64,000 bases of DNA from assembly GCA_038890745.1 (NCBI GenBank), contig JAWAFD010000005.1:8817-72816 (forward strand), read 5' to 3'. The position numbers and the translations under genes were made by a program. Origin of the DNA: Candidatus Anstonellales archaeon (lineage in GTDB: Archaea > Micrarchaeota > Micrarchaeia > Anstonellales > J096). The notes beneath the pieces are model-generated. The model made no database searches, was not told where the DNA came from, and saw nothing but the letters and a program-made list of their open reading frames with translations. Positions 1,508 through 19,417 of the stretch are shown here, in pieces. Position 1 is the first letter of the stretch. The number at the start of each line of letters is the position of its first letter.

Positions 1508-1559
1508 AAAATAGTCGCATTTTAGACCAATTTTATTAAATTTTGGAACTTTTTGCGAC
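1508..1559. repeat. 51-bp direct repeat, copy 1 (copy 2 at 2771..2823), bracketing the ATPase gene 1536..2783
   Basis: aaatagtcgcattttagaccaatttt(a/tt)ttaaattttggaactttttgcga occurs twice with one indel. Copy 2 carries the ATG of the ATPase. Copy 1 carries its stop plus a vestigial ATG-CGA-CTA-TTT (MRLF) start of a lost downstream paralog. Confidence 0.8.
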
Positions 1560-2783: not shown

Positions 2784-2823
2784 TTTAGACCAATTTTTTT
2801 AAATTTTGGAACTTTTTGCGAAC
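2771..2823. repeat. 51-bp direct repeat, copy 2
   Basis: See copy 1. Confidence 0.8.
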
Positions 2824-2854
2824 ATTACGCAGAAAACACATGGGGTAGAAAAAA

Positions 2855-2907
2855 GTGTTCAAAAAACCGACCAAAAATAGCTAAAAATGGTCGGAAGTCT
2901 GAACAAA
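2855..2907. repeat. 53-bp perfect direct repeat, copy A (copy B at 4119..4171), with internal imperfect hairpin CCGACC-N16-GGTCGG
   Basis: tgttcaaaaaaccgaccaaaaatagctaaaaatggtcggaagtctgaacaaa is identical at both loci. Copy B contains the stop codon of ATPase 2939..4144. Copy A lies about 30 nt upstream of its ATG. Confidence 0.85.
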
Positions 2908-2938
2908 CTTTAAAAAACCTTCGCTGCCCAGTATAATC

Positions 2939-4144: not shown

Positions 4145-4171
4145 CTAAAAATGGTCGGAAGTCTGAACAAA
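4119..4171. repeat. 53-bp direct repeat, copy B
   Basis: See copy A. Confidence 0.85.
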
Positions 4172-4201
4172 TAGGTATAACGCATCCCCGCAATCACGCT
4201 C

Positions 4202-4344
4202 GCGGAACCCAGGGGAGGTCGTAGGAGGTTTTCTTTTGGCGACCTCCCCCATGTTCTACGATACTCCCCACCCCCTCCGCAATCACGCTCGCATACGCTC
4301 GCTTGGGGATAGGTTTTTAAGCACTTAGGAGGATATTATAGTAT
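4202..4344. repeat. Type-A intergenic element (143 nt), identical to 8822..8964, partial copy at 6214..6277
   Basis: Identical sequence sits upstream of small genes 4345, 8965 and (3' part only) 6278. It contains a 10-bp inverted repeat GGGGAGGTCG-N18-CGACCTCCCC (4212..4249). It is flanked by 16-nt direct repeats ccgcaatcacgctcgc (4188..4203 and 4277..4292). It ends in a TATA-like tttttaa about 25-31 nt before the ATG. Confidence 0.85.
4305..4344 (+). promoter_or_regulatory. Putative archaeal promoter (TATA-like tttttaag) of small variable gene; the same element is at 6238..6277 and 8925..8964
   Basis: The conserved gataggtttttaagcacttaggaggatattatagtat sits immediately 5' of the ATG in three copies. 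TATA-like spacing is consistent with a leaderless or short-leader transcript. Confidence 0.4.
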
Positions 4345-4851
4345 ATGGTGATAGGTGTAAAAGAGAGGAAGGATAAGGAAGTTAAGTTTTCTGATAAAAT
4401 TAGAAGGAATTTTGAGAGGTTTAAGGATAAGGTTGAGGGATTGGGGAAGAAGGCAATTATTTTAGGTGGAGTTGGGATTGGAGTAGGTCTAGGGTGTGCG
4501 AGTGATGGAGTTAGTCCAAAACAGTACACACTAGATCAGGTTCAAAGTGGACGGATAACGATTGATGAATTTGTAGAAAACATGGACCTGTACAGTTTGT
4601 GTTACACAAAAGAGGATTCAATAGCTATGGTGGCTATTTTCTGGTGGAAAACAACTGGAAGTAAAGATCCATTAATTTGGGAAAAATTAATAAGAGGGGA
4701 GAATGTAGATTATGAAAGAACTTATCCTCCAAGTGGTCCACCACCTTTTAACGTTAGCAGAGATGATTTGTACGGTTTAAGGGTAGCTACGTCACCGTAT
4801 GTAGATACTCTAATTCAACGCGCAAAAGACGGTGCTCCTCTTATTAAATAA
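4345..4851 (+). CDS. Small variable partner protein 6 (conserved N-terminal basic + Gly-zipper TM head, variable C-terminus)
   Basis: The N-terminal 53 aa, MVIGVKERKDKEVKFSDKIRRNFERFKDKVEGLGKKAIILGGVGIGVGLGCAS, are nucleotide-identical to the heads of 6278.. and 8965... The C-terminus is unique but keeps the family motif T(K/R)(E/D)DS(I/L). Confidence 0.65.
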   Translation: MVIGVKERKDKEVKFSDKIRRNFERFKDKVEGLGKKAIILGGVGIGVGLGCASDGVSPKQYTLDQVQSGRITIDEFVENMDLYSLCYTKEDSIAMVAIFWWKTTGSKDPLIWEKLIRGENVDYERTYPPSGPPPFNVSRDDLYGLRVATSPYVDTLIQRAKDGAPLIK

Positions 4852-4854
4852 GGC

Positions 4855-5526
4855 TCATTTACCTTCCTTGAATTGTTCTTTTAATGCATTCAACTCTTCT
4901 CCAGCTTGTTTTTTCAGTTCTGGAACTGCCACCACTCCTCCAGCATAGCCTATAAGTATGTTCATTTTTATTGCAGATTTATCGTACTTAAATAAATTCA
5001 ACTTATTTGAGCTTTGAGAAAAAGTTTTCCCATATTCTGACAATTGTCCTGATTCCATAGAGGACAACATTACTGACCAGGCCCTTATTCCATATTTCTC
5101 ATCAAGTTGCTGTTTTACTTGAGGGTCAGTAGAGTATTGTTGTATTAAATCGTCAGCTTTTTGTAGTGCTAGTTCAGTACTTTCTCCTTTGGAAATAAAA
5201 TCATCAGCAATAGAAGTACGTAATCCCACCCCTATGTAATAAACTTCAGAAAACCCTGGGGTTTCTTGTTTGATTTTTTTTGTGAGCTTCTCCCCCGCCT
5301 CCGGATCTTTTCTTAAAATTTCTTCAATCTGTGTTCTTTTATCCTCTTCACTCAATTCTTTATTTTCTAATATTGCTGCAATCTGTTCTGAAACTGTTGC
5401 CGCTCTCTCATACAAACTTATTTGTTCTCTTTTCCATTCCTCAAACTGTTTTTCATTAGGAAGTTTTCCTTTCCATTTAGTTAGATAAGCAGCATATAAG
5501 CTTCTTTCTATTTCTGTTGCTGGCAT
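4855..5526 (-). pseudogene. 5'-truncated orphan C-terminal cassette 6 (subfamily B, related to 10813..11727), which lacks the homology-block head
   Basis: It shares ELMPATEIERSLYAAYLTKW(K/E)GKLPNEKQFEEWKREQISLYERAA and the C-terminal N(I/L)LIGY motif with cassette 2. The track ORF 4855..5859 continues upstream only as antisense of the inserted antitoxin gene. There is no QQGTPEY..MNEGEL head. Confidence 0.5.
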
Positions 5527-5623
5527 TAGTTCTGAATTACATTCAATATATGGAGAAAAGGAGGCCCATTCATTAGGCGAAATATTTTTAAGGTTAGGAT
5601 GAGTATATATCAAAGGTGAAAAC

Positions 5624-5830
5624 GTGGAGACTATTACTGTGAACGTAAATTTGCTTAAGGAAATGTACAAAAGAATACTTAGAATAGAGGAAGAGATAAA
5701 GGAAATTAAGTACGCGGTTGTCGAGATAGAAGAAGTATCAGAGAGGGAGATTAAACAACTCGAAAAAAGAAAGAAAGAAGCATTAAAAGGAATGGGAATC
5801 CCACTCAACAAAGCATTAGAGGAATTTTGA
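5624..5830 (+). CDS. Type II antitoxin (RelB-like partner of the downstream RelE), 68 aa
   Basis: It is a small acidic/helical protein. Its stop overlaps the start of the RelE-family gene (ATGA overlap at 5827..5830). Confidence 0.5.
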   Translation: METITVNVNLLKEMYKRILRIEEEIKEIKYAVVEIEEVSEREIKQLEKRKKEALKGMGIPLNKALEEF

Positions 5831-6105
5831 ATATGAGGGAATTCAGGATTATTATACACAAGCAGGTAATAAAGCAGCTTAGAAAGTTAGATGCACGCAT
5901 AAGAAATAATGTAAAAAAGGTTCTGGTTCATCTACAGTATGACCCGGTACCTGCAAAGTCATATGATATAAAGAAACTTTCAAAAGGAGAAGGACATTAC
6001 AGAATAAGAATAGGAAAATTTAGAGTTCTATATTGGGTTGATTTTACAAATTATCTGATTGTAGTAACGGATATCAAACGAAGGGACGAAACAACATACA
6101 AATAG
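5827..6105 (+). CDS. relE: RelE/ParE-family toxin (mRNA interferase), 92 aa
   Basis: The C-terminal HYRIRIGKFRVLYWVD...YLIVVTDIKRRDE is a typical RelE/ParE core (R..G.YR..Y), and the size is typical. Confidence 0.7.
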   Translation: MNMREFRIIIHKQVIKQLRKLDARIRNNVKKVLVHLQYDPVPAKSYDIKKLSKGEGHYRIRIGKFRVLYWVDFTNYLIVVTDIKRRDETTYK

Positions 6106-6277
6106 TGTACCAAACCCCTCTAAGATATCTAATGTGGGTTAAAGCAAAACTTAGGTTAGGTTAAATAATGTTCTAGATGATGTCTTCCGTGCTCTATGCT
6201 ACTTCCCCTCCGCAATCACGCTCGCATACGCTCGCTTGGGGATAGGTTTTTAAGCACTTAGGAGGATATTATAGTAT

Positions 6278-6736
6278 ATGGTGATAGGTGTAAAAGAGAG
6301 GAAGGATAAGGAAGTTAAGTTTTCTGATAAAATTAGGAGAAATTTTGAGAGGTTTAAGGATAAGGTTGAGGGATTGGGGAAGAAGGCAATTATTTTAGGT
6401 GGAGTCGGGATTGGAGTAGGTCTAGGGTGTGCGAGTAAGGATGACAGTATTTATTCGTACTACAATGTTACGACTGCCGACTCAATTAGCCTGGATGAAT
6501 TTAGGCAGTATGTATATCGTGGAGCAGTAACAAGAGAGGACAGCCTACTCGGTCTAGGTAAGTTTATATGTGAAATATGGGGGTTCATACCAACTGAAGA
6601 AGAGTTCTTTAGTATGCCTATGTTGGAGTCTCAAAGAAAGTTTTTTGTATATATCATTGCGGAAAGAGACTATTACAAGTTATTAATAGAAGCGTTAGAA
6701 ACGATTAAAAAAGAAGAAAAGTTAGAAAAAAAATAA
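6278..6736 (+). CDS. Small variable partner protein 5
   Basis: Same conserved 53-aa head. The variable C-terminus carries TREDSLL. Confidence 0.65.
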   Translation: MVIGVKERKDKEVKFSDKIRRNFERFKDKVEGLGKKAIILGGVGIGVGLGCASKDDSIYSYYNVTTADSISLDEFRQYVYRGAVTREDSLLGLGKFICEIWGFIPTEEEFFSMPMLESQRKFFVYIIAERDYYKLLIEALETIKKEEKLEKK

Positions 6737-6758
6737 TTATTCTCTCATAAAGAAAAAA

Positions 6759-7361
6759 CTAAAATCCGCCAAGTAAAACATAGAGCTTCAAATCGCTTAC
6801 ATTTTCTGGTGGCTTAGACCACGCATCCTTATTTTTTGTTATCCTATCGAGAAATTGAGTTAGGTCACAACCTCCCTCTTTAAATGCTTGGGTAAAACCT
6901 TGCGGGTCAAAGGTTTCTGGTTTTAAAAACGATGCAGCGTCATCCAATTTCCTCATTTTCTCTTCTTTTTCTTTTCCATCTGGAACAAAAGAAAGTTCGC
7001 CCTGAGCTTTAGTTATATACTCACTCGCTAGCCCACTCAGCCCACGAAACGCTGCTATTTTGTCTTCATCACTCAATTCTTGATAAGTAGTCCCTCCAGT
7101 TAAAACAGCATAGGCAAGTCGATACTCGTCCGCTCTTTTATCAAAGTAGCTCTGAACTTTTTTAAGTGCTTTTTCATCCCCTTTAAGTGCTTTATCAAGG
7201 GATTTTCTAAGTTCTATATCTTCCCCTGTAAGTTTTTTAGGATCTGCTCCAAGAGTAGCGCTTAGTATACTATACTCTTCTCTTTCCGCTCTATATTTCT
7301 CCGGATTCATATACGCATCCATCAATATTTTTCTCGCCTCTCTTAACTCTCCTTCGTTCAT
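6759..7361 (-). CDS. Orphan C-terminal cassette 5 (ATG = internal MNEGEL Met; frame stays open upstream through the homology block to about 7650)
   Basis: It begins MNEGELREARKILMDAYMNPEKY. The upstream in-frame sequence encodes ...TPEYQDLQATIDKAKPYEEAQNTLQIIASLSIAWKGNIRIGDDVISLG, identical to the other heads. The tail is unique but has the shared GDEKAL...LAY(N/A)VLTG motif. Confidence 0.6.
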   Translation of the reverse strand: MNEGELREARKILMDAYMNPEKYRAEREEYSILSATLGADPKKLTGEDIELRKSLDKALKGDEKALKKVQSYFDKRADEYRLAYAVLTGGTTYQELSDEDKIAAFRGLSGLASEYITKAQGELSFVPDGKEKEEKMRKLDDAASFLKPETFDPQGFTQAFKEGGCDLTQFLDRITKNKDAWSKPPENVSDLKLYVLLGGF

Positions 7362-7620
7362 CCCTAAACTTATTACATCATCTCCAATCCGTATGTTTCC
7401 TTTCCAAGCAATTGATAAGGAAGCTATTATTTGAAGTGTATTTTGCGCCTCTTCATACGGTTTGGCTTTATCTATTGTTGCTTGGAGGTCTTGGTATTCT
7501 GGAGTTTCTTTCTCTACTGTAAATATTGCTTTTCTTGCTTCCTCGGCCTCTTTTAGAATATTTGGGTCAAAGGTTCTACTTAATAAAAATGCTTGGTTTG
7601 TTTGCTCAGTTATTTTTAGG
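7285..7620. repeat. Cassette homology block (about 330 bp), copy in orphan 5
   Basis: It is near-identical to 10000..10335, 11571..11830 (partial), 12912..13250 and 8740..8821 (partial). For example 7362..7509 is identical to 10077..10223. Confidence 0.85.
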
Positions 7621-7627
7621 AGCAGGT

Positions 7628-7678
7628 AGGGGATAGGTTTTTAACTATTTCTTAGCATATTATAATTAGTGTATTAGT
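7628..7678 (+). promoter_or_regulatory. Type-B putative promoter of small gene; copies at 10332..10382 and 11838..11888
   Basis: Conserved ggggataggtttttaactatttcttagcatattata(a/t)ttagtgtattagt precedes the start. It has TATA-like tttttaa and an AT-rich box. Confidence 0.4.
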
Positions 7679-8260
7679 ATGATAGTAGATGGAAAAACGA
7701 GAGAGTTTGGATTTACCAAGAAATTTAGGGAATTTGCTAGAAACTTAGGATTTAAAGGAAGGGATGTTTTGGTTGCTGGAATAATCGGAACTGGAATTTT
7801 ATCTGGCAAGGCTGGAGCCCAGCAGGCAGATTCTTTAGTTATAGATACAAGCTCTGTTCATATAGATTCTACTTATATAGACTGGAGTAAACCAAGGTTT
7901 ATGGGATTGACTTATGGTTATTATTATGATTGGTTTAAAGTAACAGGAGTGGCTGCTTATCGTCTTTATATGGAATATGGTATGAGCTATTCTGATGCGT
8001 TAACGTGGCTCGATAGTGTTCAAACAGCAGGGTCAATCAAGACTTTCCCATATAACCAACCCCAAACAAGAGAGGATACAATTAAAACGATAATTGATTA
8101 TTTTAAGTTGCACTACAATTTATTCCCCAAGAGTGATACTGAACTTGAATGGTACATAAAAACTCACCCAAATAAGGCTGAGCAGATAAAAACAGATTGG
8201 TACATAATACGAAATAGTCCTTATTGGCCTTATCTGGTAGAAGTTGGAAGCAAAAGATAA
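7679..8260 (+). CDS. Small variable partner protein 4 (divergent subfamily)
   Basis: The N-terminus MIVDG..FREFARNLGFKGRDVLVAGIIGTGILSGKAG has the same basic + Gly-rich hydrophobic architecture. It is driven by the type-B element. Its 3' end overlaps the 3' end of 8230..8817 by 31 nt, convergently. Confidence 0.55.
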   Translation: MIVDGKTREFGFTKKFREFARNLGFKGRDVLVAGIIGTGILSGKAGAQQADSLVIDTSSVHIDSTYIDWSKPRFMGLTYGYYYDWFKVTGVAAYRLYMEYGMSYSDALTWLDSVQTAGSIKTFPYNQPQTREDTIKTIIDYFKLHYNLFPKSDTELEWYIKTHPNKAEQIKTDWYIIRNSPYWPYLVEVGSKR

Positions 8261-8817
8261 ATAGCAAGCGAATTTCTATTTAAATTTTCCAAGATATTTG
8301 TTGCGGATTGTAAAGATTTCTGTTTTCCCTTAGCGCCCTCTACAGCAGTTTGGTAATACTTTTCAGAAAGTTTTTCTAATTGTTTTTTTTCTTCGTCACT
8401 ATATTGTTCTGTTTTAAAGAATAATAATAGTGCAATTTTAGCATCATCTTTTTCAAAGTTACCTCCACTAGCAATAACAAAACCAAGTATATCCCGACCC
8501 CGTTGCAACCTATCCTCCTCACTCATTGTAGATGGGTCTTGTTGAATAAATTCAAGAGTAGTAGTTACATTATTCAATCTTGTATTATTATAGCTACTCA
8601 ATTCAGCTATCAATTCCTTCATAGCTTTTTTATCTCCTTTAAGTGCTCTTTCTGTGAGAGTTAACAATTCTTCATCTTGGGTTGTTAATTCTTCTGGTTT
8701 TTTAATACGAACCTCTGTTATTAATGAAATAGCTTCTCTTTCCGCTCTATATTTCTCCGGATTCATATACGCATCCATCAATATTTTTCTCGCCTCTCTT
8801 AACTCTCCTTCGTTCAT
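8230..8817 (-). CDS. Orphan C-terminal cassette 4
   Basis: It starts at the MNEGELREARKILMDAYMNPEKYRAERE Met. The homology block is cut off at 8821/8822, where the type-A element begins (mosaic junction). Confidence 0.6.
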   Translation of the reverse strand: MNEGELREARKILMDAYMNPEKYRAEREAISLITEVRIKKPEELTTQDEELLTLTERALKGDKKAMKELIAELSSYNNTRLNNVTTTLEFIQQDPSTMSEEDRLQRGRDILGFVIASGGNFEKDDAKIALLLFFKTEQYSDEEKKQLEKLSEKYYQTAVEGAKGKQKSLQSATNILENLNRNSLAIYLLLPTSTR

Positions 8818-8821
8818 CCCT

Positions 8822-8964
8822 GCGGAACCCAGGGGAGGTCGTAGGAGGTTTTCTTTTGGCGACCTCCCCCATGTTCTACGATACTCCCCACCCCCTCCGC
8901 AATCACGCTCGCATACGCTCGCTTGGGGATAGGTTTTTAAGCACTTAGGAGGATATTATAGTAT
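8822..8964. repeat. Type-A intergenic element, copy 2 (identical to 4202..4344)
   Basis: It is a 143-nt identity. It continues into the gene head 8965..9128, which equals 4345..4508 with 1-2 mismatches. Confidence 0.85.
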
Positions 8965-9480
8965 ATGGTGATAGGTGTAAAAGAGAGGAAGGATAAGGAA
9001 GTTAAGTTTTCTGATAAAATTAGGAGAAATTTTGAGAGGTTTAAGGATAAGGTTGAGGGATTGGGGAAGAAGGCAATTATTTTAGGTGGAGTTGGGATTG
9101 GAGTAGGTCTAGGGTGTGCGAGTGATGGAATTAGAACATACAATATAGGTAGTAGAACATACTATATCTTATCTACTTCTGAGATCGAAAAAATGAGCAT
9201 AGATGAATTAAGGGCCCATATTTATAAGGGTGCAACGACAAGAGACGATAGTATAACTTGTCTAGCCATGTATATGGCTGCAAGATGGGGATCCATAATA
9301 GGGCATATACCGTTTGCTGATGAGTGGGGACGGATAATTCCAGAACCTACTCTTGAAGAACTACTGATAATAATGGGGGACGGAGCTGGAAACGACCAAC
9401 CACCATACTACATTACAATACTCCTTGGATTATACGGTAGAACAAGTAGCGACGGTAGAACAGAGTTGGTTCCCAAATAA
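8965..9480 (+). CDS. Small variable partner protein 3
   Basis: Conserved 53-aa head. The variable tail carries TTRDDSIT. Confidence 0.65.
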   Translation: MVIGVKERKDKEVKFSDKIRRNFERFKDKVEGLGKKAIILGGVGIGVGLGCASDGIRTYNIGSRTYYILSTSEIEKMSIDELRAHIYKGATTRDDSITCLAMYMAARWGSIIGHIPFADEWGRIIPEPTLEELLIIMGDGAGNDQPPYYITILLGLYGRTSSDGRTELVPK

Positions 9481-9520
9481 AAAACAAATAAAGTAAAACT
9501 TTATTAATAACTATGTATGT

Positions 9521-10231
9521 CTAATATGCACACAGGATTCGAATTTTTAATTCCTTCAAACTTTTTGGTGGGCTAGAGTAGACATCTCTAATGTCTCTTC
9601 TCTCGCTAGCAAAAGTAGCTTGGTCAACTCCAATGTCTCCTAATACTTTTGTAAAGTCTTGTAGGTTAAAAGTTTCTATGTTCATCAAGTAGGGATATAA
9701 TGTGGATATTTTATGCAACAGGTATGGTTCGAATTCGCCTCCTACATACAAACCGCGTAGTGTTGTTTTTTTGTCTTCTTCATCTAGATTTTGATAGTCA
9801 ACATTTCCAGTTAAAACATTATAAGCAAGGTCATAGTCATGTGCTTTTTCTCTAAAGTAGTTCTGAAGTTCTCTGAGTGCTTTTTCATCTCCGTTAATTG
9901 CTCTATCAAGATCTCTTCTAAGCTTGATGTCTTTTTCATCTGTAAGTTTCTCAGGATCTGCTGTAAGTGTAATAGCCAATAATCCATATACTGTTTTTTC
10001 TGCCTTATATTTCTCCGGATTCATATACGCATCCATCAATATTTTTCTCGCCTCTCTTAACTCTCCTTCGTTCATCCCTAAACTTATTACATCATCTCCA
10101 ATCCGTATGTTTCCTTTCCAAGCAATTGATAAGGAAGCTATTATTTGAAGTGTATTTTGCGCCTCTTCATACGGTTTGGCTTTATCTATTGTTGCTTGGA
10201 GGTCTTGGTATTCTGGAGTTCCTTGCTGCAC
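9521..10231 (-). CDS. Orphan C-terminal cassette 3 (called from GTG = Val of TVQQGTPEY; frame open further upstream)
   Basis: The head QQGTPEYQDLQATIDKAKPYEEAQNTLQIIASLSIAWKGNIRIGDDVISLGMNEGELREARKILMDAYMNPEKY is followed by a unique tail. The upstream in-frame sequence encodes ...EQTNQAFLLSRTFDPKIIEAANEAKKQLPTV, homologous to the full-length gene. Confidence 0.6.
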   Translation of the reverse strand: MQQGTPEYQDLQATIDKAKPYEEAQNTLQIIASLSIAWKGNIRIGDDVISLGMNEGELREARKILMDAYMNPEKYKAEKTVYGLLAITLTADPEKLTDEKDIKLRRDLDRAINGDEKALRELQNYFREKAHDYDLAYNVLTGNVDYQNLDEEDKKTTLRGLYVGGEFEPYLLHKISTLYPYLMNIETFNLQDFTKVLGDIGVDQATFASERRDIRDVYSSPPKSLKELKIRILCAY

Positions 10232-10335
10232 TGTAGGAAGTTGTTTTTTTGCTTCATTAGCGGCCTCTATAATTTTTGGGTCAAAGGTTCTACTTAATAA
10301 AAATGCTTGGTTTGTTTGCTCAGTTATTTTTAGGA
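10000..10335. repeat. Cassette homology block, copy in orphan 3
   Basis: See 7285..7620. Confidence 0.85.
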
Positions 10336-10382
10336 GCAGGTAGGGGATAGGTTTTTAACTATTTCTTAGCATATTATGGTAT

Positions 10383-10835
10383 ATGATGATAGGTGTAAAA
10401 GAGAGGAAGGATAAGGGAGATAAGTTTTCTGATAAGATTAGGAGAAATTTTGAGAGGTTTAAAGAGAGAGTTGAACTAAAAGTAAAAAACACATCACCAA
10501 AGACAGGAATCTTATTATCTGCTCTGTTATTTGGAGAGTGGAGTCTCGTCAGCCTAGATGGTATGAAGTCAGTCCTTGAAGAATCTGACCCGATTTATGG
10601 TCAAGTTTTCACAGAACTCTGCGATAAGATCTACTCTCGATGCACTACGAAACAAGATAGTATAGACGTTGCAAGAGCTACACTTAAAGAAGCCACTGGA
10701 AGTAGCGATCCAGAGATGTGGGTAAAAGTTTTTAGTAATCTTCTCAGCAACAGTTTTAGAGATGGAAAATGTACAAACGAGGACTTTAAGTTATTGCTAA
10801 TATTTTATGCTACTATTCCATATGCAAGCCAATGA
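10383..10835 (+). CDS. Small variable partner protein 2
   Basis: MMIGVKERKDKGDKFSDKIRRNFERFKERVE head with a type-B promoter. The tail carries TTKQDSID. Its 3' end overlaps 10813..11727 by 23 nt, convergently. Confidence 0.6.
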   Translation: MMIGVKERKDKGDKFSDKIRRNFERFKERVELKVKNTSPKTGILLSALLFGEWSLVSLDGMKSVLEESDPIYGQVFTELCDKIYSRCTTKQDSIDVARATLKEATGSSDPEMWVKVFSNLLSNSFRDGKCTNEDFKLLLIFYATIPYASQ

Positions 10836-11727
10836 TAGATTTAAGCCCAATGGCAGTAGAAACTGCGAAATAATATCCTATAAGTAGATTCTGTTTAAAA
10901 TATACACTGCCCATCTCTTCTACTTTATTTTGTTTTTTATCTAGATCAGTAATAATATTGGCAAGATGTTCTGAACTTGGTCTGATTTCTACGGATGGGA
11001 GTCTTATCCCATCTATCATGAAATTCGCTATCGACATTGCATAGTATGGGGCTACCCTATCAGAAGCCTCTTTATTACCCGTTCCTGCTTTATTAAAAAT
11101 GTCTAAAGCTTTTGGCATTGCATTTTGTATAGCCGCGACTTCATCTTTGGTCAAATTATCTGATTTTTTTCCAACTTCGACTCCTGCGATCTCCTGAGCT
11201 AAAAATATCCGCGCATTAGTAGATATAAAGGTGGACAAAGTGGGCATAAGTATATTAAATTCTTGTGCTAACAAACTTATGCTGGCGTAATCAAGACCAA
11301 TTAATGCCTTCTCTATCTCCTCCTGACTCGCTCCTTTTTCCAATAAATCTGCTATTTCTTTTGCTTTATCCGCCGCTCTCTCATACAAACTTATTTGTTC
11401 TCTTTTCCATTCCTCAAACTGTTTTTCATTAGGAAGTTTTCCTTCCCATTTAGTTAGATAAGCAGCATATAAGCTTCTTTCTATTTCTGTTGCTGGCATT
11501 AGTTCTGACCAATCTTTTCCATATAAAGAGATTATCTTTTCTCTCGCTTCTTTTAGTTCTTTTTCATTCATCCCTAAACTTATTATATCATCTCCAATCC
11601 GTATGTTTCCTTTCCAAGCAATTGATAAGGAAGCTATTATTTGAAGTGTATTTTGCGCATCTTCATACGGTTTGGCTTTATCTATTTTTGCTTGGAGGTC
11701 TTGGTATTCTGGAGTTCCTTGCTGCAC
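10813..11727 (-). CDS. Orphan C-terminal cassette 2 (subfamily B tail)
   Basis: The head is identical up to ...IISLGMNE. It then switches to KELKEAREKIISLYGKDWSELMPATEIERSLYAAYLTKWEGKLPNEKQFEEWKREQISLYERAA plus a unique tail ending NLLIGYYFAVSTAIGL, which is hydrophobic. Confidence 0.6.
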   Translation of the reverse strand: MQQGTPEYQDLQAKIDKAKPYEDAQNTLQIIASLSIAWKGNIRIGDDIISLGMNEKELKEAREKIISLYGKDWSELMPATEIERSLYAAYLTKWEGKLPNEKQFEEWKREQISLYERAADKAKEIADLLEKGASQEEIEKALIGLDYASISLLAQEFNILMPTLSTFISTNARIFLAQEIAGVEVGKKSDNLTKDEVAAIQNAMPKALDIFNKAGTGNKEASDRVAPYYAMSIANFMIDGIRLPSVEIRPSSEHLANIITDLDKKQNKVEEMGSVYFKQNLLIGYYFAVSTAIGLKSIIGLHME

Positions 11728-11830
11728 TGTAGGAAGTTGTTTTTTTGCTTCCTCGGCCTCTTTTAGAATTTTTGGGTCAAAGGTTCTACTTAATAAAAAT
11801 GCTTGGTTTGTTTGCTCAGTTATTTTTAGG
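11571..11830. repeat. Cassette homology block, copy in orphan 2 (upstream half only)
   Basis: See 7285..7620. Confidence 0.8.
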
Positions 11831-11888
11831 AGCAGGTAGGGGATAGGTTTTTAACTATTTCTTAGCATATCATAATTAGTGTATTAGT

Positions 11889-12416
11889 ATGGTAGAAAAA
11901 GTTAAAGTAAGGAAACAGGAGGATGCTAAAGAAACAGAAAATAGAGCGGGTATTTTTGAAAGGTTTAAAGATATAGTGGAGAGATTTGGAAACAAGGCTT
12001 TAATTGCTGGGGTTCTTTTAGGTGGAGGTGTTGGAGTAGGAAAAGGATTCAGTATAAACGAAGGAGCTACATCTAGGCAGGATAGCATTAAAATAGAACT
12101 TGAGTTCTGGTTAGGATACGTTGACGCTTTCCAAACCTTTGGTATCGATGGAACCATAGTTAACCCTGAATTGGCGGATGAGATATATAAAGATGCTTCA
12201 ACCAAAAGCGATAGCACTACACAAGCAATAAATTTTTGGCTTAGGGAAACAGGGCAGGTCCCATACTCAAGTATAGATGTTTGTATAATGCTCAAGATAC
12301 TGGCCACGATGGATTGGGAAGACTTAGCAACTTTCAGCCAATATGCGCAACGAATTAGCGATGGATGGCTATTAACTCAACCCTATCTTAACAAAGAGAT
12401 TAATTCAAATCGTTAA
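11889..12416 (+). CDS. Small variable partner protein 1 (partner of the full-length gene tail)
   Basis: The head MVEKVKVRKQEDAKETENRAGIFERFKDIVERFGNKALIAGVLLGGGVGVGKG is a diverged member of the same family. The tail carries TSRQDSIK. Its 3' end overlaps the 3' end of 12405..14723 by 12 nt. Confidence 0.6.
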   Translation: MVEKVKVRKQEDAKETENRAGIFERFKDIVERFGNKALIAGVLLGGGVGVGKGFSINEGATSRQDSIKIELEFWLGYVDAFQTFGIDGTIVNPELADEIYKDASTKSDSTTQAINFWLRETGQVPYSSIDVCIMLKILATMDWEDLATFSQYAQRISDGWLLTQPYLNKEINSNR

Positions 12417-14723
12417 TAGTAAAATCTTTGTTTTAAAGTTCATAGGATTTATTCCTTGATCTATTTTTTTCTTGTTATTGTCAATCTCCAAAGTAAGTTT
12501 GGAGTTTTGCTCCTTTATATCCTTCACTACTTGTTCTTGTACCTGAGGATTCGAGTCCAAAAACTGCATAGTGAATAGTATTTTATCTTCAATAGTTGGG
12601 AATTTTTTTACCTCATCTTGATATTCCACTCCACCATATTTATAAGATAGCGCAACAATATTACCAAAAACTCGGGATGTGGTTGCTTTATCAAAGGAAC
12701 TTATATCACCACCTTCCAAAAGCGTTAGTGCAGCATTATACGCGAGTAAACGTCTCTCTTGCTCTAGATACAGTTGATTCCTAACTCTTTCCAATGCTTT
12801 CTCATCTCCACTTGCCGCTTTTATTATATCCTCTCTCAGTTTCTTATCCTCATCTGTTATTTGTTTTTCGGGCGTTCTTAATGCAACAATAATTGGTGCA
12901 AGCAAACTTTTTTCGTCTTTATATTTCTCTCGATTCATATACGCATCCATCAATATTTCTCTCGCCTCTCTTAACTCTCCTTCGTTCATCCCTAAACTTA
13001 TTATATCATCTCCAATCCGTATGTTTCCTTTCCAAGCAATTGATAAGGAAGCTATTATTTGAAGTGTATTTTGCGCATCTTCATACGGTTTGGCTTTATC
13101 TATTTTTGCTTGGAGGTCTTGGTATTCTGGAGTTCCTTGCTGCACTGTAGGAAGTCGTTGTCTTGCTTCATTAGCGGCCTCTATAATTTTTGGGTCAAAG
13201 GTTCTACTTAATAAAAATGCTTGGTTTGTTTGCTCAGTTATTTCGGCAATGAATTTTTTTCCTTCTTCTGTGCTTAACAATTCTTTATCGTTTACTATTT
13301 CTGAACAAAGACCAAAAGCTCTTGAGAGTTGGGTGTATAATTGAGCTTTTGCTTCGTCTTCTTCTGCTTTTGCTGATGCCCTGTACAACTCTGAGAGGTT
13401 TGAGTAGATTGCCTTTTTATCTTTTGGATCTACTTCCTTTCCTTCTAAAAGCTTTTGGAGTTCGGATGAATTCTCTGTTAGGTACTTTAGCTGCTCTCTT
13501 GCCGCTCCTCTCATTAGTCCTCCCACTATTGCCTCAGAGACACCAAAAAATTCAGCTAATGAAGCAATATTTCCACGTGCAAAACCAACCATCAAAGCCG
13601 CTGAAAATATCTGGCTTACACCAAACTGTCCTGTTGCTATTGCTACTCTCTGCTGGCCTGCCCTTAACTCACCTCCTCCGCCCCCCTCCTTCACTTTCTT
13701 TCCTGTCCAGAACCTCCCTTTTCCAACTCCTCTTAATCTTTCTTCTACTATTCCCATATTCTCCGCTATCCATGCTGGTCTTCCTCTTATCAACCCTTCT
13801 TTTACCCTACCGGGAAGAATTTTTGTCGCAATTCCTCCCATTGCTTCAACCGCTTTGGTAGCTGCTCTGGTTGTTACAGAGACGCCTTTTTCCACTGCTT
13901 CAACAGCTTTTTTAATAAAAGAAACTTTCTTTCCTAACTCAACTGCTTTTCCGCCAAGTTTTTTTGCATGTGGGGCGACCTTAGCCACGACCTTAGCCTG
14001 TTGCAGAGTAATCCCTCCCTTCCCTGTTATTCTTGCTCTTTGGCCTGTAATAAATCTTAAAGTATTCAGATCAAACCAGAAAAATGGGCTTCCACCAGTG
14101 GCATAGGAAGCAGCGAGAAGCATGCCTGCGATTATAAAAAGAGGTAAGCAGATTGCAGGTGCGGTTCCTCCAAAAAGAGGAGGAAGGAGTGTTGGGATGT
14201 AAACGACTTGGGCATATGTTGGGGAAAGGGTTGCAAAAATAGGCTGACCATTTTTATTTATGTATGCTGACTCAGGCCATGGGGCTGGTTTAAACCCTCC
14301 GCATGGAGAAACATCTTCAAAAGAGGTTATACTTTCGTTTAGGCAGGGCTGGAGAAGGCAGTTTGGAGAAGAGGAGCAGCAAAACTTTACACCTATCGTA
14401 CACCCCCTTACCATCCCTGTTCCTGAGCATGTTTCGTTATAAGGTGTTAGGTCAAAAACCGCTTTTCCATTCTCATTTGTAAAAACCCTGCACCTAGAAT
14501 AAAGGTCACCAGTTGCATTATACACTTCAATAAATAGGGTTGCGTTCCCAACAGGAAGCCTTTCTCCATTATAAACGGCATACATGTATATATCTACATT
14601 TTTTTCAACCAAACCTGCAATAATCCCGGATTCATAAGCATTAAAAAGCTCCTCACAGCCAGGGCAGGGAGGCTGAGAGAAAAGCAAACTCATAAAAAAT
14701 AAAAGAAAAAATACTTTTCTCAT
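12405..14723 (-). CDS. Full-length cassette-bearing protein. It has a signal peptide, a Cys-rich ectodomain, a TM segment and a long helical region. It also carries the homology block (QQGTPEY..MNEGEL, nt about 12912..13250) and variable C-terminal module 1 (nt 12405..about 12910).
   Basis: 772 aa. The N-terminus MRKVFFLLFFMSLLFSQ matches the signal peptides of the upstream paralogs. The hydrophobic ICLPLFIIAGMLLAASYATGG is followed by R-x-GG-type motifs. The middle is nucleotide-identical to the orphan heads. It is the last gene of the 12.4-25.3 kb minus-strand operon. Confidence 0.7.
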   Translation of the reverse strand: MRKVFFLLFFMSLLFSQPPCPGCEELFNAYESGIIAGLVEKNVDIYMYAVYNGERLPVGNATLFIEVYNATGDLYSRCRVFTNENGKAVFDLTPYNETCSGTGMVRGCTIGVKFCCSSSPNCLLQPCLNESITSFEDVSPCGGFKPAPWPESAYINKNGQPIFATLSPTYAQVVYIPTLLPPLFGGTAPAICLPLFIIAGMLLAASYATGGSPFFWFDLNTLRFITGQRARITGKGGITLQQAKVVAKVAPHAKKLGGKAVELGKKVSFIKKAVEAVEKGVSVTTRAATKAVEAMGGIATKILPGRVKEGLIRGRPAWIAENMGIVEERLRGVGKGRFWTGKKVKEGGGGGELRAGQQRVAIATGQFGVSQIFSAALMVGFARGNIASLAEFFGVSEAIVGGLMRGAAREQLKYLTENSSELQKLLEGKEVDPKDKKAIYSNLSELYRASAKAEEDEAKAQLYTQLSRAFGLCSEIVNDKELLSTEEGKKFIAEITEQTNQAFLLSRTFDPKIIEAANEARQRLPTVQQGTPEYQDLQAKIDKAKPYEDAQNTLQIIASLSIAWKGNIRIGDDIISLGMNEGELREAREILMDAYMNREKYKDEKSLLAPIIVALRTPEKQITDEDKKLREDIIKAASGDEKALERVRNQLYLEQERRLLAYNAALTLLEGGDISSFDKATTSRVFGNIVALSYKYGGVEYQDEVKKFPTIEDKILFTMQFLDSNPQVQEQVVKDIKEQNSKLTLEIDNNKKKIDQGINPMNFKTKILLLTI
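12912..13250. repeat. Cassette homology block inside the expressed full-length gene
   Basis: See 7285..7620. Downstream orphans are truncated exactly upstream of this block. Confidence 0.85.
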
Positions 14724-14758
14724 AGTAGTTCTTCTAAGTGAAGCTTTAAATATCTTTT

Positions 14759-17700
14759 CTAATCATCAATCCAGCAATCCGAAACCCTTGTTTTAAGAGG
14801 AACGTCAAACCCGCAGAAATTCGCGTATGTGCTTCCTCTTACGCATTCCTTGCTCTCATTTCCCGAAGTAGAGAATAGGATAGGAATGGGTTTTATGGAG
14901 GAGGACTGAATCGATAAGAATGTTTTTGTGTTGTCCGCAACACAAATTTTTGGAAGCCCTTTTATAGAAGCAATTAGGTCTGAATACAAAGATGGCTCTG
15001 CCATCACATCCTGCAAAGGGTATTCCTCAAAAGAATACTTTCCTGCGCTGTAAACCCGACATTTTAGATTTCCAGAATAGGGAGGGGAAATACACATCTC
15101 TTTTACAACACAACCCTCTGGCCATTTCTGATTTCCAGAATATCCAGAGCACTGAAAACCAGTAAGCGGGTCGCCCAAATAATACCCATTACAAACACCT
15201 CTAAGAATGTCGACCTCATCACATTCAACGCAGACGCACTCCTCGGAAACCTCGGCTTCGCTAACAAACGCATATGGGGTAAGACCTGATGAAATCTCAG
15301 CAGAGGATTCAACAGAACAGTAATCCTGCATATTTAAAGACGAGCCATCTGAGATGCTGAAATCAGAGAAATGCATCCCAATTATCCCTGAATTAACAAA
15401 CCTTGCCCTTTGATAGGCAAGGTAGTTGAACATTCCATACTTATCTACAGGAGTGTTTACCTCTCTGATCATTAGCAGGGATGGCTTCCCGAACCTAGAA
15501 ACAAGTTTTCTTGAAATGTTGTTTAATTTTTGAACAACGTATTCGTAAAACTTTATTTTTTCCTCTTCATTGTTAAGCGGAATTTTTGGGTTTATTTTTA
15601 CTTCAACAATAAAAAGGTCTGAATTTTCCATAAGGGAATTGCATTGCTGCCCTGCAAAAGTTCCTTCCCTGGCACAGAACTCCTCTCCCGCTAAATGGTC
15701 TGACATTTCTAAACCATACGCACTGTCAAAATTCTCAAGGAAAGACCTTTCAGAGTTTATATCCTGCGAATCAATGCCGGTTATGGTAATCTCACCTGAA
15801 AGCGCAGGCATACAATAGGGGCATGGTTCCTTAACCTCCATTGCCCTCTTCTCTAAATTTATTTCATAGTTGTTTCTTTCTTTTGCATTCCCTATAACAA
15901 CAATTATCGGCCCCAAAGAGGATGCAGATTCTTTGTAATCGCCGGCATGGTTTCCTTGGTAGTCATCTGCGGCATAAAGCAGGCTTACGTATATATCGCG
16001 AAGGAGTTTGTATGCAAATGTTGCATCCTCTTTGTAAACCGTGCGCTCAGGTTCATAGCAGCTATCGCATCCATAGTAAGTTTTGTAAAGCTCATCATCT
16101 TCGGCATAAAGAACTGGCATAACCCCTGAAAATAGATAAGAAGTAAGCTTTCCTTTCATGTATTTCCAGTGAGGATAGAAATCAGGCCAGGAAACACGGG
16201 CATCATAGACATCACCATCTTGTCTTGTCGCATCCTTGCAGCCAAAAGCTAAATTGTAAGCATCGCACCTAAGCTGGTCATCACGATGCCCTCCACACGC
16301 AACCCTTGCATCAACACTACCAGTGGAGATAACACGCCCGTTTTCATAAACCTCTCCAACAGTTTTTCCCTCCCACTCATTTGGGTTTCGCGCATTCAGG
16401 TTTGAGGGTGGCAGGATCTCAAGGAGAGGGCAGTAGTTTGCTATTCTTTTGTTTATTTCATTTGTAGTATCAGCCTCGTAATCATTCTTAAAATCTTCAT
16501 AAGGTCCTTCTGGATAATCCGCAAGGTCTATTCGCGCTATTCCATTATTTTCAGAAATGGGAAGATCTTCGCTATTCGGGTCTCCGCCAGTCGGGTCATA
16601 GAATTCGTTTAATGGGTAAAGATGCTCAACAGCAATTGTGTTGAAGGTTGCAGGCTCGCACCATCCATATTCCTTTACAACTATGTTGCCCATTTCATCG
16701 GTTAAGCAGTTTCCAAAATTTCCATCCTTATTTTTTCTTATTACTATTGCTGCGGATGCATACGCGCTGCATTCGCCATCCTCTCCCTGAGAGACGCAAA
16801 AATCATCATCTGTTAAACCAGAGCATATTTCTCTCCAATTTTCACCCATGCTCGAACCATCCAACCCGAATTTCGGGGGATAGCACACGGCGATATCATC
16901 TTTGTATTCTTCGCTCATGCAGTTTTCTATAAAATTCACAACATACGTCCCTCCTTCCTGGCATCCACTCCAGGTGGTTGGAACAATCTGGCAGTAATGA
17001 AGAATTGCCCATCTCGTTGGCTGGTCGTTCGGAAGAGGATAGTTCACAATCGGGCCGAGTGTTGAGCTGACGTCCCTTGAAAGGAATATCATAATCTTCC
17101 CATTGCTTATCTTTCCTGAAACCGGTGAAGGAGGAGTAAACAACCATTCTTCTGTTTTCAGGGATGCTCTACTCACTCCTAGAGTTTCCCCATCCCACAT
17201 ATCCACACTATTTTTTGGTTCATCTGAAGCAGGAACAGATTTTGTTCTTGTTGGGTTGCAGGCAACAGAGCCATACTCGTAGGAACAGCCGCACTCAACA
17301 CCTTTGTTTGTTGAAGCATGTATGCATACACTCCTTTTGTAAACGTTATTTCCACAAACCCCAGAGTAGCACTCAAACCCGCTCTCACATTCAAACTCTG
17401 CTTTTCCACCCTCAAAAATCTGTGAGGCATAAATCGTGTGTCTAGGAAGAACGTTTGCATAATAGGTTGGAATTTCCTTAAACCCAAAAATTCCAACAGT
17501 TGCAGCAGTCAACCCGGTTCCTTCTTTTGCGAATTTTAAAACCCCGACATTTGCTGTTCTTCCATCGTTCGGATATTGTAATTCAACCTCTCCCTGGCTC
17601 CAGAAAGTATTTCCTCTACCAGCTGCGCTCTCATCCTCAACATCTGCCCAGAAAAGCCCTCCGTACCAGTGCTTCACAGAACCCGGCTCATCCCCGAAAG

Positions 17701-18451
17701 GAGAGTTTGGAAGGGAAAGGGATTGGGTGGGGGAGGAGCAAACCATTGCTGGGTTTATCCCTCTGCATTCCCATTCGCACTCATAGTAAGAGGAGTATTC
17801 TTTGCCGTTTTCTGTGCAGGAATAAGCGCCATTTGTTTGTTGGCATTTTTTTTCAGCAAAAAAATAGTTTGAATACCTATCTTTTGTTCCAGTGTAGGAA
17901 TTTAAGACCTTATCTGAGAGCGGGAAGAGGTACCGGTAAGTATCGTATTCCTCAAAGCTTTCTCCGATTCCAAACCTAAAACTATTCAGCATAAGCCCTT
18001 TGCTCATCGCGCTTTCAACAGAAGGGGTCATTTTCAAAACATCGCATTCTGCATGCAGAAGGCCAAAAACAGCTCCTTGGCCTGTTGGAAGTTCTATGTT
18101 TCCCTTCTCAACATCCTCATGGCTTATGAGAAGGGGAATGCCTATCTTTCCAAAATCACCGCAGAGCATTCCAGAGCATCCCTCAACACAAGATTTTACC
18201 TCCCATTCTGAACAAACAGAATAGTTGAAATCCTCAACCTCACAGAAAATAGGCTCATCATTTTCTTTCCATACTTTACAATCATCTTCACCAGTATAGC
18301 TAGGGTCTTCTGCGAGCTTGTCCGCAAAATAGCATTTATCGTTTTGAGCATATTTGTAAAGGCAGCAGTGCGCCTCTGGTTTCTGGAAGCAACCAACCAT
18401 AAGAAGAAGCGCAAAACCCAAAAACAAAATAAATAATTTTCTTACTTTCAT
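14759..18451 (-). CDS. Giant Cys-rich secreted/surface protein (1230 aa) with N-terminal signal peptide
   Basis: MKVRKLFILFLGFALLLMVGC signal (possible lipobox-like VGC). There are more than 60 Cys in CxxC/CxC contexts. It lacks internal TM helices. It is the first large ORF of the membrane-protein operon region. Confidence 0.6.
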   Translation of the reverse strand: MKVRKLFILFLGFALLLMVGCFQKPEAHCCLYKYAQNDKCYFADKLAEDPSYTGEDDCKVWKENDEPIFCEVEDFNYSVCSEWEVKSCVEGCSGMLCGDFGKIGIPLLISHEDVEKGNIELPTGQGAVFGLLHAECDVLKMTPSVESAMSKGLMLNSFRFGIGESFEEYDTYRYLFPLSDKVLNSYTGTKDRYSNYFFAEKKCQQTNGAYSCTENGKEYSSYYECEWECRGINPAMVCSSPTQSLSLPNSPFGDEPGSVKHWYGGLFWADVEDESAAGRGNTFWSQGEVELQYPNDGRTANVGVLKFAKEGTGLTAATVGIFGFKEIPTYYANVLPRHTIYASQIFEGGKAEFECESGFECYSGVCGNNVYKRSVCIHASTNKGVECGCSYEYGSVACNPTRTKSVPASDEPKNSVDMWDGETLGVSRASLKTEEWLFTPPSPVSGKISNGKIMIFLSRDVSSTLGPIVNYPLPNDQPTRWAILHYCQIVPTTWSGCQEGGTYVVNFIENCMSEEYKDDIAVCYPPKFGLDGSSMGENWREICSGLTDDDFCVSQGEDGECSAYASAAIVIRKNKDGNFGNCLTDEMGNIVVKEYGWCEPATFNTIAVEHLYPLNEFYDPTGGDPNSEDLPISENNGIARIDLADYPEGPYEDFKNDYEADTTNEINKRIANYCPLLEILPPSNLNARNPNEWEGKTVGEVYENGRVISTGSVDARVACGGHRDDQLRCDAYNLAFGCKDATRQDGDVYDARVSWPDFYPHWKYMKGKLTSYLFSGVMPVLYAEDDELYKTYYGCDSCYEPERTVYKEDATFAYKLLRDIYVSLLYAADDYQGNHAGDYKESASSLGPIIVVIGNAKERNNYEINLEKRAMEVKEPCPYCMPALSGEITITGIDSQDINSERSFLENFDSAYGLEMSDHLAGEEFCAREGTFAGQQCNSLMENSDLFIVEVKINPKIPLNNEEEKIKFYEYVVQKLNNISRKLVSRFGKPSLLMIREVNTPVDKYGMFNYLAYQRARFVNSGIIGMHFSDFSISDGSSLNMQDYCSVESSAEISSGLTPYAFVSEAEVSEECVCVECDEVDILRGVCNGYYLGDPLTGFQCSGYSGNQKWPEGCVVKEMCISPPYSGNLKCRVYSAGKYSFEEYPLQDVMAEPSLYSDLIASIKGLPKICVADNTKTFLSIQSSSIKPIPILFSTSGNESKECVRGSTYANFCGFDVPLKTRVSDCWIDD

Positions 18452-18460
18452 TCTCTCCCC

Positions 18461-19417
18461 CTAAACCAATTTTGAGACCATTGAGATGAATGCTGTTGGC
18501 ATCCCACCAAGTATGACTGTTGCAAACCTTATAAAAACAAAGGAAAGGGAAAGGGCTGCGAGGTTTCCAAGTAAAATCTGGTAGAAAACAGATGCCATGA
18601 AGTCCTGCATTGATTTGTGTTTTATCCCCATCTGGGCTGATTGCATGGAGAACCTGCTAAAATCCAAATCAAACCCTCTTCCTATGCTCAAATAGGTTGG
18701 GTAGTTGCAAACGGTTTCAGTTTCGAGCATAGGGGATTTTGGAGGGGCAACAAAACCCGATGAGGCAATCCATAGAACAGATGGGTAGATGTAGTAAAGA
18801 GCAATTGCTATTGAAATGAACAGAGCACCAAGCCCACGGGTAAGCTTCATTGCGCGGAGAACTATTCCAACTGGAAGGAATATGGAGAGCATGTACTTTG
18901 AGATGTAATCTAGAACGTAGTATTGCGCTGCTAGGAAAACAGAAAGCTCTGTTCCTTTTTGTGTAAGGAACTGAACTTCAGAAACTCTTCTGTATATCGC
19001 CTCCCACCATCCCCCCTGAAAAATGGGGATGCCATACCATCCAAGATAGATTGATGAAAGTGGCATGACCCATCTCGCATCAGATGCTGCTGAATTCAGC
19101 ACATCCTCCATTGATGCGAGCATGAGGAGCGTCTGCTCTTTTGACTGCTCAATCGCAAGAATGTTTATCGGACCCGGAGTTTGCGGGGGTGTAAGAAGGG
19201 TTGAAATCCCATTCAGTATGAAAACAAGGAATATTATACCCAAGGCAACTGCAATATTGTCTATTATTTCAGCAATGGCAATCGTTTGCCCCCTCATGTC
19301 CATGAACATTTTCGCGAACATGTAATGGATTACTTCTATAAAAAATAGTATGAGCACTGAGAGGATTGCAACAATCCCCCAGTTTGTTTCCCAATCAGCA
19401 AGAAAATCCACCATCAT
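18461..19417 (-). CDS. Polytopic membrane protein, paralog family member
   Basis: Multiple hydrophobic segments. It has the family loop motif P-x-G-I-V-L-R-x(5)-R-G-L-G (LPVGIVLRAMKLTRGLGALF). Confidence 0.6.
   Translation of the reverse strand: MMVDFLADWETNWGIVAILSVLILFFIEVIHYMFAKMFMDMRGQTIAIAEIIDNIAVALGIIFLVFILNGISTLLTPPQTPGPINILAIEQSKEQTLLMLASMEDVLNSAASDARWVMPLSSIYLGWYGIPIFQGGWWEAIYRRVSEVQFLTQKGTELSVFLAAQYYVLDYISKYMLSIFLPVGIVLRAMKLTRGLGALFISIAIALYYIYPSVLWIASSGFVAPPKSPMLETETVCNYPTYLSIGRGFDLDFSRFSMQSAQMGIKHKSMQDFMASVFYQILLGNLAALSLSFVFIRFATVILGGMPTAFISMVSKLV

Follow-up and report, generated by a model that had tools for sequence, protein, structure and literature searches.

Polymorphic toxin systems, including Rhs, CdiA-CT/CdiI and MafB, carry orphan C-terminal cassettes together with immunity genes (Zhang et al. 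2012, PMC3482391); for archaeal systems of this type we refer to Makarova et al. 2019, as cited in PMC8416519. The locus considered here, from a Candidatus Anstonellales archaeon (GenBank assembly GCA_038890745.1), lies within a 64,000-nucleotide (nt) window of contig JAWAFD010000005.1 (positions 8,817 to 72,816, forward strand; all coordinates below count from the first letter of the window), which also encodes archaeal markers, e.g. the primase large subunit. It consists of an array of variable protein tails, each convergent with one member of a family of six small genes, at the 3' end of an eight-gene operon. On balance we favour the reading that it is a polymorphic effector/partner system, in which the small proteins are outward-facing, specificity-matched binders serving in immunity or at least in recognition, and in which the orphan small genes stay expressed. 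Direct support is available for the anatomy of the locus, the co-occurrence of tail and partner types, the switching of tails between strains, the intact open reading frames (ORFs) under purifying selection, and the placement of the promoters.

The resemblance to polymorphic toxin systems is foremost one of architecture, i.e. an N-terminal part that is constant and a C-terminal module that varies, with a sharp boundary between them marked by a conserved motif, accompanied by an array of orphan, 5'-truncated modules with a common homology arm and by one linked cognate small gene per module. The constant part is provided by the tail carrier, a protein of 772 amino acids (aa) encoded by the expressed gene at 12405..14723 on the minus strand and 100% identical to a hypothetical protein from a Candidatus Anstonellales metagenome-assembled genome. 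From its N terminus the carrier comprises a signal peptide, a conserved Cys-rich and beta-rich ectodomain, one transmembrane (TM) segment followed by a juxtamembrane stretch that is very basic, a middle part of variable, low-complexity sequence, an all-helical region, the conserved boundary …LSIAWKGNIRIGDDIISLGMNEGELREAR, and the variable tail (12405-12907); in the structure model the ectodomain is of low confidence and the helical region is confidently predicted. An alignment of eight carrier orthologues reveals conservation of residues 1-240 and of the pre-tail motif, with no relatedness beyond GMNEGELREAR. The tails following the boundary, which are 150-240 aa long, are acidic, Cys-free and predicted to be helical bundles. 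As a separate observation, the signal-like N-terminus of the carrier is followed by QPPCPGC, which contains a CxxC motif, and ten Cys residues in the ectodomain are invariant.

The array contains one tail in the expressed position and five 5'-truncated orphan tails, all on the minus strand, each facing one plus-strand small gene. The expressed tail is convergent with the gene at 11889..12416 (175 aa), orphan tail O1 (10813..11825) with that at 10383..10835 (150 aa), O2 (9521..10329) with that at 8965..9480 (171 aa), O3 (8230..8821) with that at 7679..8260 (193 aa), O4 (6759..7615) with that at 6278..6736 (152 aa), and O5 (4855..5535) with that at 4345..4851 (168 aa). Three 3' overlaps between small gene and tail, of 12, 23 (O1 with 10383) and 31 nt (O3 with 7679), had been stated in an earlier, sequence-only reading of this DNA and agree with the coordinates; the remaining three pairs are spaced by 3, 22 and 40 nt. 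The 336-nt arm that encodes the boundary in the expressed gene (12908-13243) has copies, at 91-96% identity, in four orphans, i.e. at 11538-11825 in O1, 9994-10329 in O2 (96% identical to the expressed gene), 7283-7615 in O4, and as an 83-nt remnant at 8739-8821 in O3. Each copy opens a start-less reading frame that ends in its own distinct tail, and on reading the sequence both a start codon and a TATA box are absent from the orphan tails. O5 has lost its pre-tail arm, a longer ORF reaching to 5859 being out-of-family sequence; its segment 5287-5535 is 98.8% identical to the tail of the related locus L006, and 5399-5535 is 99% identical to 11372-11508 of O1.

O5 adjoins an inserted toxin-antitoxin pair of the ParE type. 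This type II pair (5624-6105, plus strand), located inside the array between the truncated O5 and the small gene 6278, comprises two ORFs of 68 and 92 aa, the longer one matching the Pfam family ParE_toxin (E=5.4e-5); the segment 5536-6186 is without counterpart in related arrays.

Two further observations concern the tails themselves. They are mosaics, with two proximal classes (ILMDAYMNPEKY… and SLYGKDWSELMPATEIERSLY…) each joined to various distal segments, and, as seen with O1, O5 and the L006 tail, it is only the distal ~140 aa that track the small-protein type. Tails that are unrelated in sequence, both in the window and in loci L001-L022, all end in a short hydrophobic motif, (I/L)(L/V)(I/V)GY… or LFxYLS, within the last 10-25 aa (e.g. 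12405-12440, 10813-10890 and 6759-6790), sometimes with ~20 hydrophobic residues; this motif may act as a signal for export, docking or membrane insertion.

The six small ORFs had been described as one family with a basic N-terminus and a Gly-rich hydrophobic stretch, and this description holds. A family profile matches only these six in the window (E values from 1e-43 to 3e-58), including the genes at 8965, 10383 and 11889, and a search of 5.8 billion sequences found 26 small-protein homologues. The known family amounts to 31 proteins of at least 12 partner types and is confined to this lineage. All 31 have an N-region of 24-40 aa with a net charge of +2 to +7, then an uncharged hydrophobic region of 11-17 aa that is 25-40% Gly, then GC(A/V)S or (A/V)KA-Q, and then a C-domain that begins acidic; the 7679 protein has an AGA-Q site rather than Cys. 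The core motif of the family is Y…T(K/R)(E/D)DS(I/L), of which the Tyr and Asp are invariant. The related motif T(K/R)xDS(I/L), which was said to be retained throughout, is exact in four of the six copies, the 7679 and 11889 proteins having TREDTI and TKSDST, respectively. The heads of 4345, 6278 and 8965 are the same over their first 53 aa; at the DNA level the 160-nt head, previously called nucleotide-identical, does end abruptly (similarity drops sharply at ~+159 to +165), with one or two mismatches over -73 to +158.

The case for matched pairs comes from the relatives. About 25 cassettes were surveyed, from genomes and metagenome fragments, of which 14 were fully compared, with further fragments (L013-L023) in addition. 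Wherever the contig of a related locus continues, a small gene convergent with the carrier gene lies next after it, and a given tail type always occurs with the same small-protein type. This is so for O4 in three loci, for O5 in three loci (the pairing with the 4345-type protein recurs in L003 and L016), and for O3 in at least five, its tail occurring with the 7679-type small protein in L002, L004, L017, L020 and L022. Among the 14 cassettes, identity over the last 140 tail residues parallels identity between the small C-domains (Mantel r=0.90, permutation p=5e-5), which bears out the co-variation that had been proposed for the two genes across strains, and the linkage of types also holds in the fragments L013-L023.

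Close relatives with different tails at the expression site, a further property shared with polymorphic toxin systems, are likewise observed. In L001, the operon of which is 95.6% identical and which has the same enolase and AAA_14 flanks, there are no orphans, and the expression site carries the pair that is O4/6278 in the window; its structure corresponds to the window minus one head-to-head and one arm-to-arm deletion. L006 is 98% identical and has a third tail at its expression site, with O4 as its first orphan pair (97.9% identity). Additional orphan cassettes are present in L002, L006, L017 and L022. The ratio of nonsynonymous to synonymous divergence (dN/dS) is 0.3-0.5 for the small genes and 0.37-0.6 for the tails, compared with 0.12-0.22 for the gene of the 1230-aa operon protein. 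The dS of the O4 pair (0.21-0.30) exceeds the genomic dS of 0.15, as expected for old alleles kept in the population. Disruption of small ORFs in close relatives had been named as an outcome that would count against functional partners; not one is disrupted in any relative examined, and the small genes are, on the sequences compared, intact and under purifying selection.

The convergent arrangement itself suggests how such exchange may occur. The variable halves of each tail and small gene adjoin as a single block of DNA, with the pre-tail arm on one side and the small-gene head plus promoter on the other, so that a single recombination event can swap both. The small-gene heads are ~99% identical over ~230 nt with a sharp breakpoint, and cluster by lineage, whereas the C-domains cluster by type across lineages; this indicates that the arms are homogenised while the variable block is exchanged. 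The near identity of the heads is thus better explained by a dual role as recombination arm and targeting signal. An invertible shufflon or other site-specific switch was considered and rejected: no pairs of inverted repeats were found in 2500-19000, and the flanking genes encode AAA_14 ATPases and enolase, not recombinases.

In the Neisseria pilE/pilS system, a single expression locus recombines, via conserved flanks, with silent copies that are 5'-truncated and lack a promoter. The orphan tails are similar in being promoter-less and 5'-truncated and in sharing conserved flanking sequence with the expression locus. It could therefore be proposed that the locus serves antigenic or phase variation by silent cassettes, with tail and partner forming a structural heterodimer, swaps enabling evasion of viruses or host defences, and the orphan small genes being functionless. 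In its favour are the lack of promoter and start in the orphan tails, the 5' homology arm that these have in common with the expression site, and the different tails at the expression sites of close strains. We nevertheless regard it as improbable, since every orphan small gene has an intact ORF with a promoter-like element and the small genes are under purifying selection; moreover, each silent copy here has a co-varying, apparently expressed partner gene, and the variable part is predicted to be cytoplasmic rather than surface exposed, differing from pilE/pilS in both regards.

The promoters of the small genes bear directly on this point. A 36-nt element, GGGGATAGGTTTTTAA…, is present in exactly six copies in the window, one 5' of each small gene, in two subtypes, as had been noticed. 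All on the plus strand, type A copies occur at 4305..4340 (for 4345, with a TATA-like box at -30), 6238..6273 (for 6278) and 8925..8960 (for 8965), and type B copies at 7629..7664 (for 7679, with the box at -40), 10343..10378 (for 10383) and 11839..11874 (for 11889). The box starts at -30 in four of the small genes and at -40 in two. Its placement was judged by a within-genome comparison, the host being archaeal, with TATA positions among 26 other genes of the window. Of these 26, 13 have a TTTAAA/TTTTAA-type hexamer beginning 26-36 nt upstream of the ATG, compared with a background frequency of 2.5%; this implies that transcription in the window is TATA-driven and largely leaderless. Leaderless transcripts, or transcripts with a leader of ~10 nt, are accordingly predicted for the small genes. 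The earlier proposal that all the small genes, orphans included, have private promoters is well supported by this genome-typical placement. The promoter of the operon (ACATTTTTAAGCGCTTAC) is similar to the type A element. Past each small-gene stop codon the first T-run lies 48-123 nt on, within the antisense of the tail, so that the antisense coupling with tail transcripts that had been suggested would be physically possible. With regard to type B, the 36-nt element stands, but the long conserved block upstream does not qualify as a regulatory element, as it corresponds, in reverse complement, to the arm that encodes the pre-tail region of the adjacent orphan.

Upstream of type A promoters there is, in AT-rich surroundings, a G+C-rich element of ~100 nt (4202-4304 and 8822-8924, with a partial copy at 6187-6237). 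Within it, GGGGAGGTCG…CGACCTCCCC form a hairpin and CCGCAATCACGCTCGC occurs in duplicate. Conservation of the element in L001 is 97.7%, and Rfam gave no match to it.

There is precedent for partner genes that are convergent and have their own promoter in the immunity genes of ionophoric colicins, which are located on the opposite strand with a promoter of their own (PMC9517006). The similarity to pore-forming colicins includes a partner gene downstream on the opposite strand with its own TATA-like box and a membrane-associated product, as predicted here, as well as an all-helical C-terminal domain with hydrophobic residues at its end. By contrast, colicin immunity proteins of this type have 3-4 TM helices, whereas the small proteins have one hydrophobic region of 11-17 aa; the tails give no match to the fold of the colicin pore domain, which has ten helices and a hydrophobic hairpin, and have no TM-grade hairpin; and colicin operons do not have orphan arrays, the present element being non-plasmid and in an archaeal host.

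The likely location of the two partners also requires consideration. The N-terminus of the small proteins was earlier taken as a signal-anchor; a basic and hydrophobic head is indeed present, but the shortness of the hydrophobic region, together with the GC(A/V)S or (A/V)KA-Q that follows it, suggests a cleavable extended signal, lipoprotein-like or signal-peptidase-I-like, rather than a stable TM anchor. Across the 31 proteins the N-region is unusually long (24-40 aa) and the xGC box non-canonical for such a signal, as judged by sequence pattern. A twin-arginine signal in the head was rejected, the RR not being conserved in the family. Because of the basic N-region, the short Gly-rich hydrophobic region and the xGC or AxA-like site, the variable helical C-domain of the small protein is predicted to be outside the cell, whether lipid-anchored, membrane-anchored or released. 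The tail, by contrast, is predicted to begin in the cytoplasm, given the single TM segment of the carrier, the strongly basic inner flank that follows it and the positive-inside rule.

Opposed locations of this sort are familiar from effectors of the type VI secretion system that act in the periplasm (Tse/Tsi and Tle/Tli), where the effector is made in the cytoplasm and the immunity protein is Sec- or lipoprotein-exported. The predicted topology here, i.e. a cytoplasmic effector and an outward-facing partner, is similar. Unlike in those systems, components of a type VI or other contractile system are absent and the effector is covalently part of a membrane protein. The roles could also be reversed, with the small proteins as secreted, bacteriocin-like Gly-zipper effectors and the tails as their intracellular partners or regulators; the secretion-type N-termini, the Gly-rich hydrophobic stretch and the private promoters are as such a role would predict. 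However, the orphan small genes would then be expressed although their cognate tails are silent, the Gly-rich stretch is in the conserved part while the variation is in the C-domain, and an exported protein would be beyond the neutralising reach of a cytoplasmic tail, and we consider this reversal very improbable.

We infer tail export, physical binding between tail and partner, and toxicity or its neutralisation from the arrangement as a whole. Under the effector/partner reading, the cassette system would sit on a conserved envelope complex of Micrarchaeota and the tail would be an effector or recognition module delivered to neighbouring cells; homologous recombination in the arms would exchange, capture or delete tail and partner jointly. 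The exported small proteins would bind matching tails, thereby acting like immunity proteins, and orphan partners, if kept expressed, could leave the cell protected against, or compatible with, sister strains using other tails.

Several points weigh against this reading. By simple topology prediction the tail is cytoplasmic and the C-domain of the partner lies outside the cell; with the membrane between them, the two could come into contact only if the tail were exported. Neither an ATPase nor a known secretion component was found in the operon. No toxin, immunity or defence family or fold was matched by any tail or small protein, so that toxicity of the tails is a matter of inference. The co-variation of tail and partner could stem from linkage alone, i.e. 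from adjacent, co-inherited DNA, and the evidence base consists of metagenome assemblies analysed at the level of sequence. More generally, comparisons of the small proteins, tails and operon proteins with Pfam, NCBIfam, PADLOC and PHROGs, and with PDB sequence profiles, returned nothing significant, Rfam had no match over 2500-13500, and no description of this locus was found in the searchable literature. Of the proposal that the small proteins are candidate immunity or cognate partners, the cognate part is thus upheld by the exceptionless co-occurrence of types, whereas strict immunity is not established, the tails matching no toxin family or fold. The locus further departs from known polymorphic toxin systems in lacking a recognisable toxin domain and a recognised secretion route or trafficking domain, in having convergent rather than co-directional partner genes, the conserved heads of which provide a second homology arm, and in its carrier being an integral member of a conserved eight-gene membrane operon.

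With tail toxicity supported neither by homology nor by fold, kin recognition stays a serious rival. Tail and small protein may be a non-toxic pair for self/kin recognition or adhesion, comparable to Proteus IdsD/IdsE or to what has been proposed for VARTIG, acting as matching identity determinants that select the cells for attachment, fusion or exchange of material, and compatibility would then be widened by the orphan partners. The VARTIG module of Thermococcales is a hypervariable C-terminal Ig domain of a large multi-Ig protein, with co-directional downstream genes (PMC8416519). It resembles the present case as a hypervariable archaeal module, similar to polymorphic toxin systems, at the C terminus of a large secreted or membrane protein, in which a toxin is not identifiable, which is linked to particular membrane-protein families, and for which roles in conflict or in self/non-self recognition are candidates. 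It differs from the present locus, which has an all-helical rather than Ig variable part, convergent partners, explicit arms for homologous recombination and a DPANN micrarchaeon as host. The same anatomical evidence that supports an effector/partner system applies to a recognition pair, and tails that are acidic, Cys-free helical bundles without a detectable toxin fold, borne on a core component of an envelope complex that is conserved without polymorphism in distant relatives, would suit it. Recognition and immunity are computationally inseparable; expressed orphan partners beside silent tails are a classic signature of immunity hoarding, and known recognition pairs of this kind usually also use a delivery system. 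We judge the non-toxic alternative unlikely, while taking it seriously.

The operon to which the array is attached runs on the minus strand from 25279 down to 12405 and has eight genes, with the cassette array at its 3' end. The seven genes upstream of the carrier (14759..25279) encode six polytopic membrane proteins, which are mutual paralogues of weak but significant similarity, and a protein of 1230 aa, the signal of which (…LMVGC) is lipoprotein-like; none of the eight operon proteins matched a family in Pfam or NCBIfam. The order of the eight genes is present in all close relatives. Two distant Micrarchaeota-like loci (L010 and L011), which adjoin Cdc48 and Pelota genes, have the same eight genes in the same order with one-to-one orthology; there the last gene encodes 1187-1299 aa and is not followed by a small convergent gene. 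When the 574-aa membrane protein served as query in a full HMMER scan, its homologues fell into 347 representative clusters and included proteins of 1000-1700 aa; none of the seven clusters checked contained a Pfam domain. In light of the number of clusters, the distant syntenic loci and the lack of Pfam domains in those seven, the eight-gene apparatus is an envelope complex that is unannotated and fairly widespread. As a tentative and rather doubtful possibility, the operon may be a hitherto unrecognised machine for delivery from cell to cell, widespread in Micrarchaeota, the last subunit of which has in Anstonellales been turned into a polymorphic effector or identity tag that is delivered on contact and has exported partners. 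As a side observation, four operon proteins, the genes of which end at 14723, 21518, 23239 and 24150 (minus strand), have a near-identical signal-like N-terminus, M(R/K)K.(F/L)FLL…LLF(A/S)Q.

The window is a contig from a metagenome-assembled genome (MAG), and repeats of this type often break assemblies, so a chimeric assembly of strain variants, or spurious antisense ORFs, might be suspected. Such an artefact is, in our view, scarcely credible, because the tandem cassette junctions recur in the independent assemblies L002, L006, L017 and L022; in addition, the carrier protein is on two contigs, and the proteins of the window have locus tags of two prefixes (QXY61 and QXX46), which suggests that the contig is in more than one MAG record; protein-level conservation of the small ORFs is evident from dN/dS below 1 and from the 26 database homologues. 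Six related contigs from independent metagenomes (L003, L004, L005, L007, L008 and L012) end at the cassette or within at most ~1 kb of it, and most of the remaining family members are on contigs of 1-3 kb; these breaks are consistent with strain-level hypervariability or with assembly-breaking repeats. A scan of GTDB genomes with the carrier found one Micrarchaeota MAG, in which the contig ends inside the gene, and a scan of the same genomes with the small-protein pattern found nothing.

Beyond the array, a perfect 52-nt direct repeat (2856-2907 and 4120-4171) brackets an AAA_14/DUF4143 ATPase gene (2939-4144), with a second AAA_14 gene at 1536-2783 (minus strand). The repeat has internal dyad symmetry (TGTTCA…TGAACA and CCGACC…GGTCGG), and the two copies may represent a terminator or regulatory element that was duplicated, or the trace of a mobile gene.

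DPANN archaea depend on cell-cell contact, and to our knowledge almost nothing is known of how they recognise or compete with one another. The logic of the locus is that of known polymorphic toxin systems; what is new are all of its protein families, the uncharacterised envelope complex that provides its carrier, the convergent partners with a second homology arm, and the DPANN host. The arrangement looks like an archaeal system for toxin/immunity or kin recognition that has not been described before, and would extend the logic of polymorphic toxins to a new archaeal phylum through entirely new protein families. The locus supplies a testable pair of specificity determinants, of which at least 12 types are visible, points to an unannotated envelope operon with hundreds of distant homologues, and gives the convergent gene order a structural rationale, in that both variable halves are in one swappable block. 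Should the operon prove to be a delivery machine, this would be the first system for discriminating strains, whether kin or competitors, to be described for DPANN archaea, and a new design of cassette exchange in which variable halves are set back to back between two homology arms.

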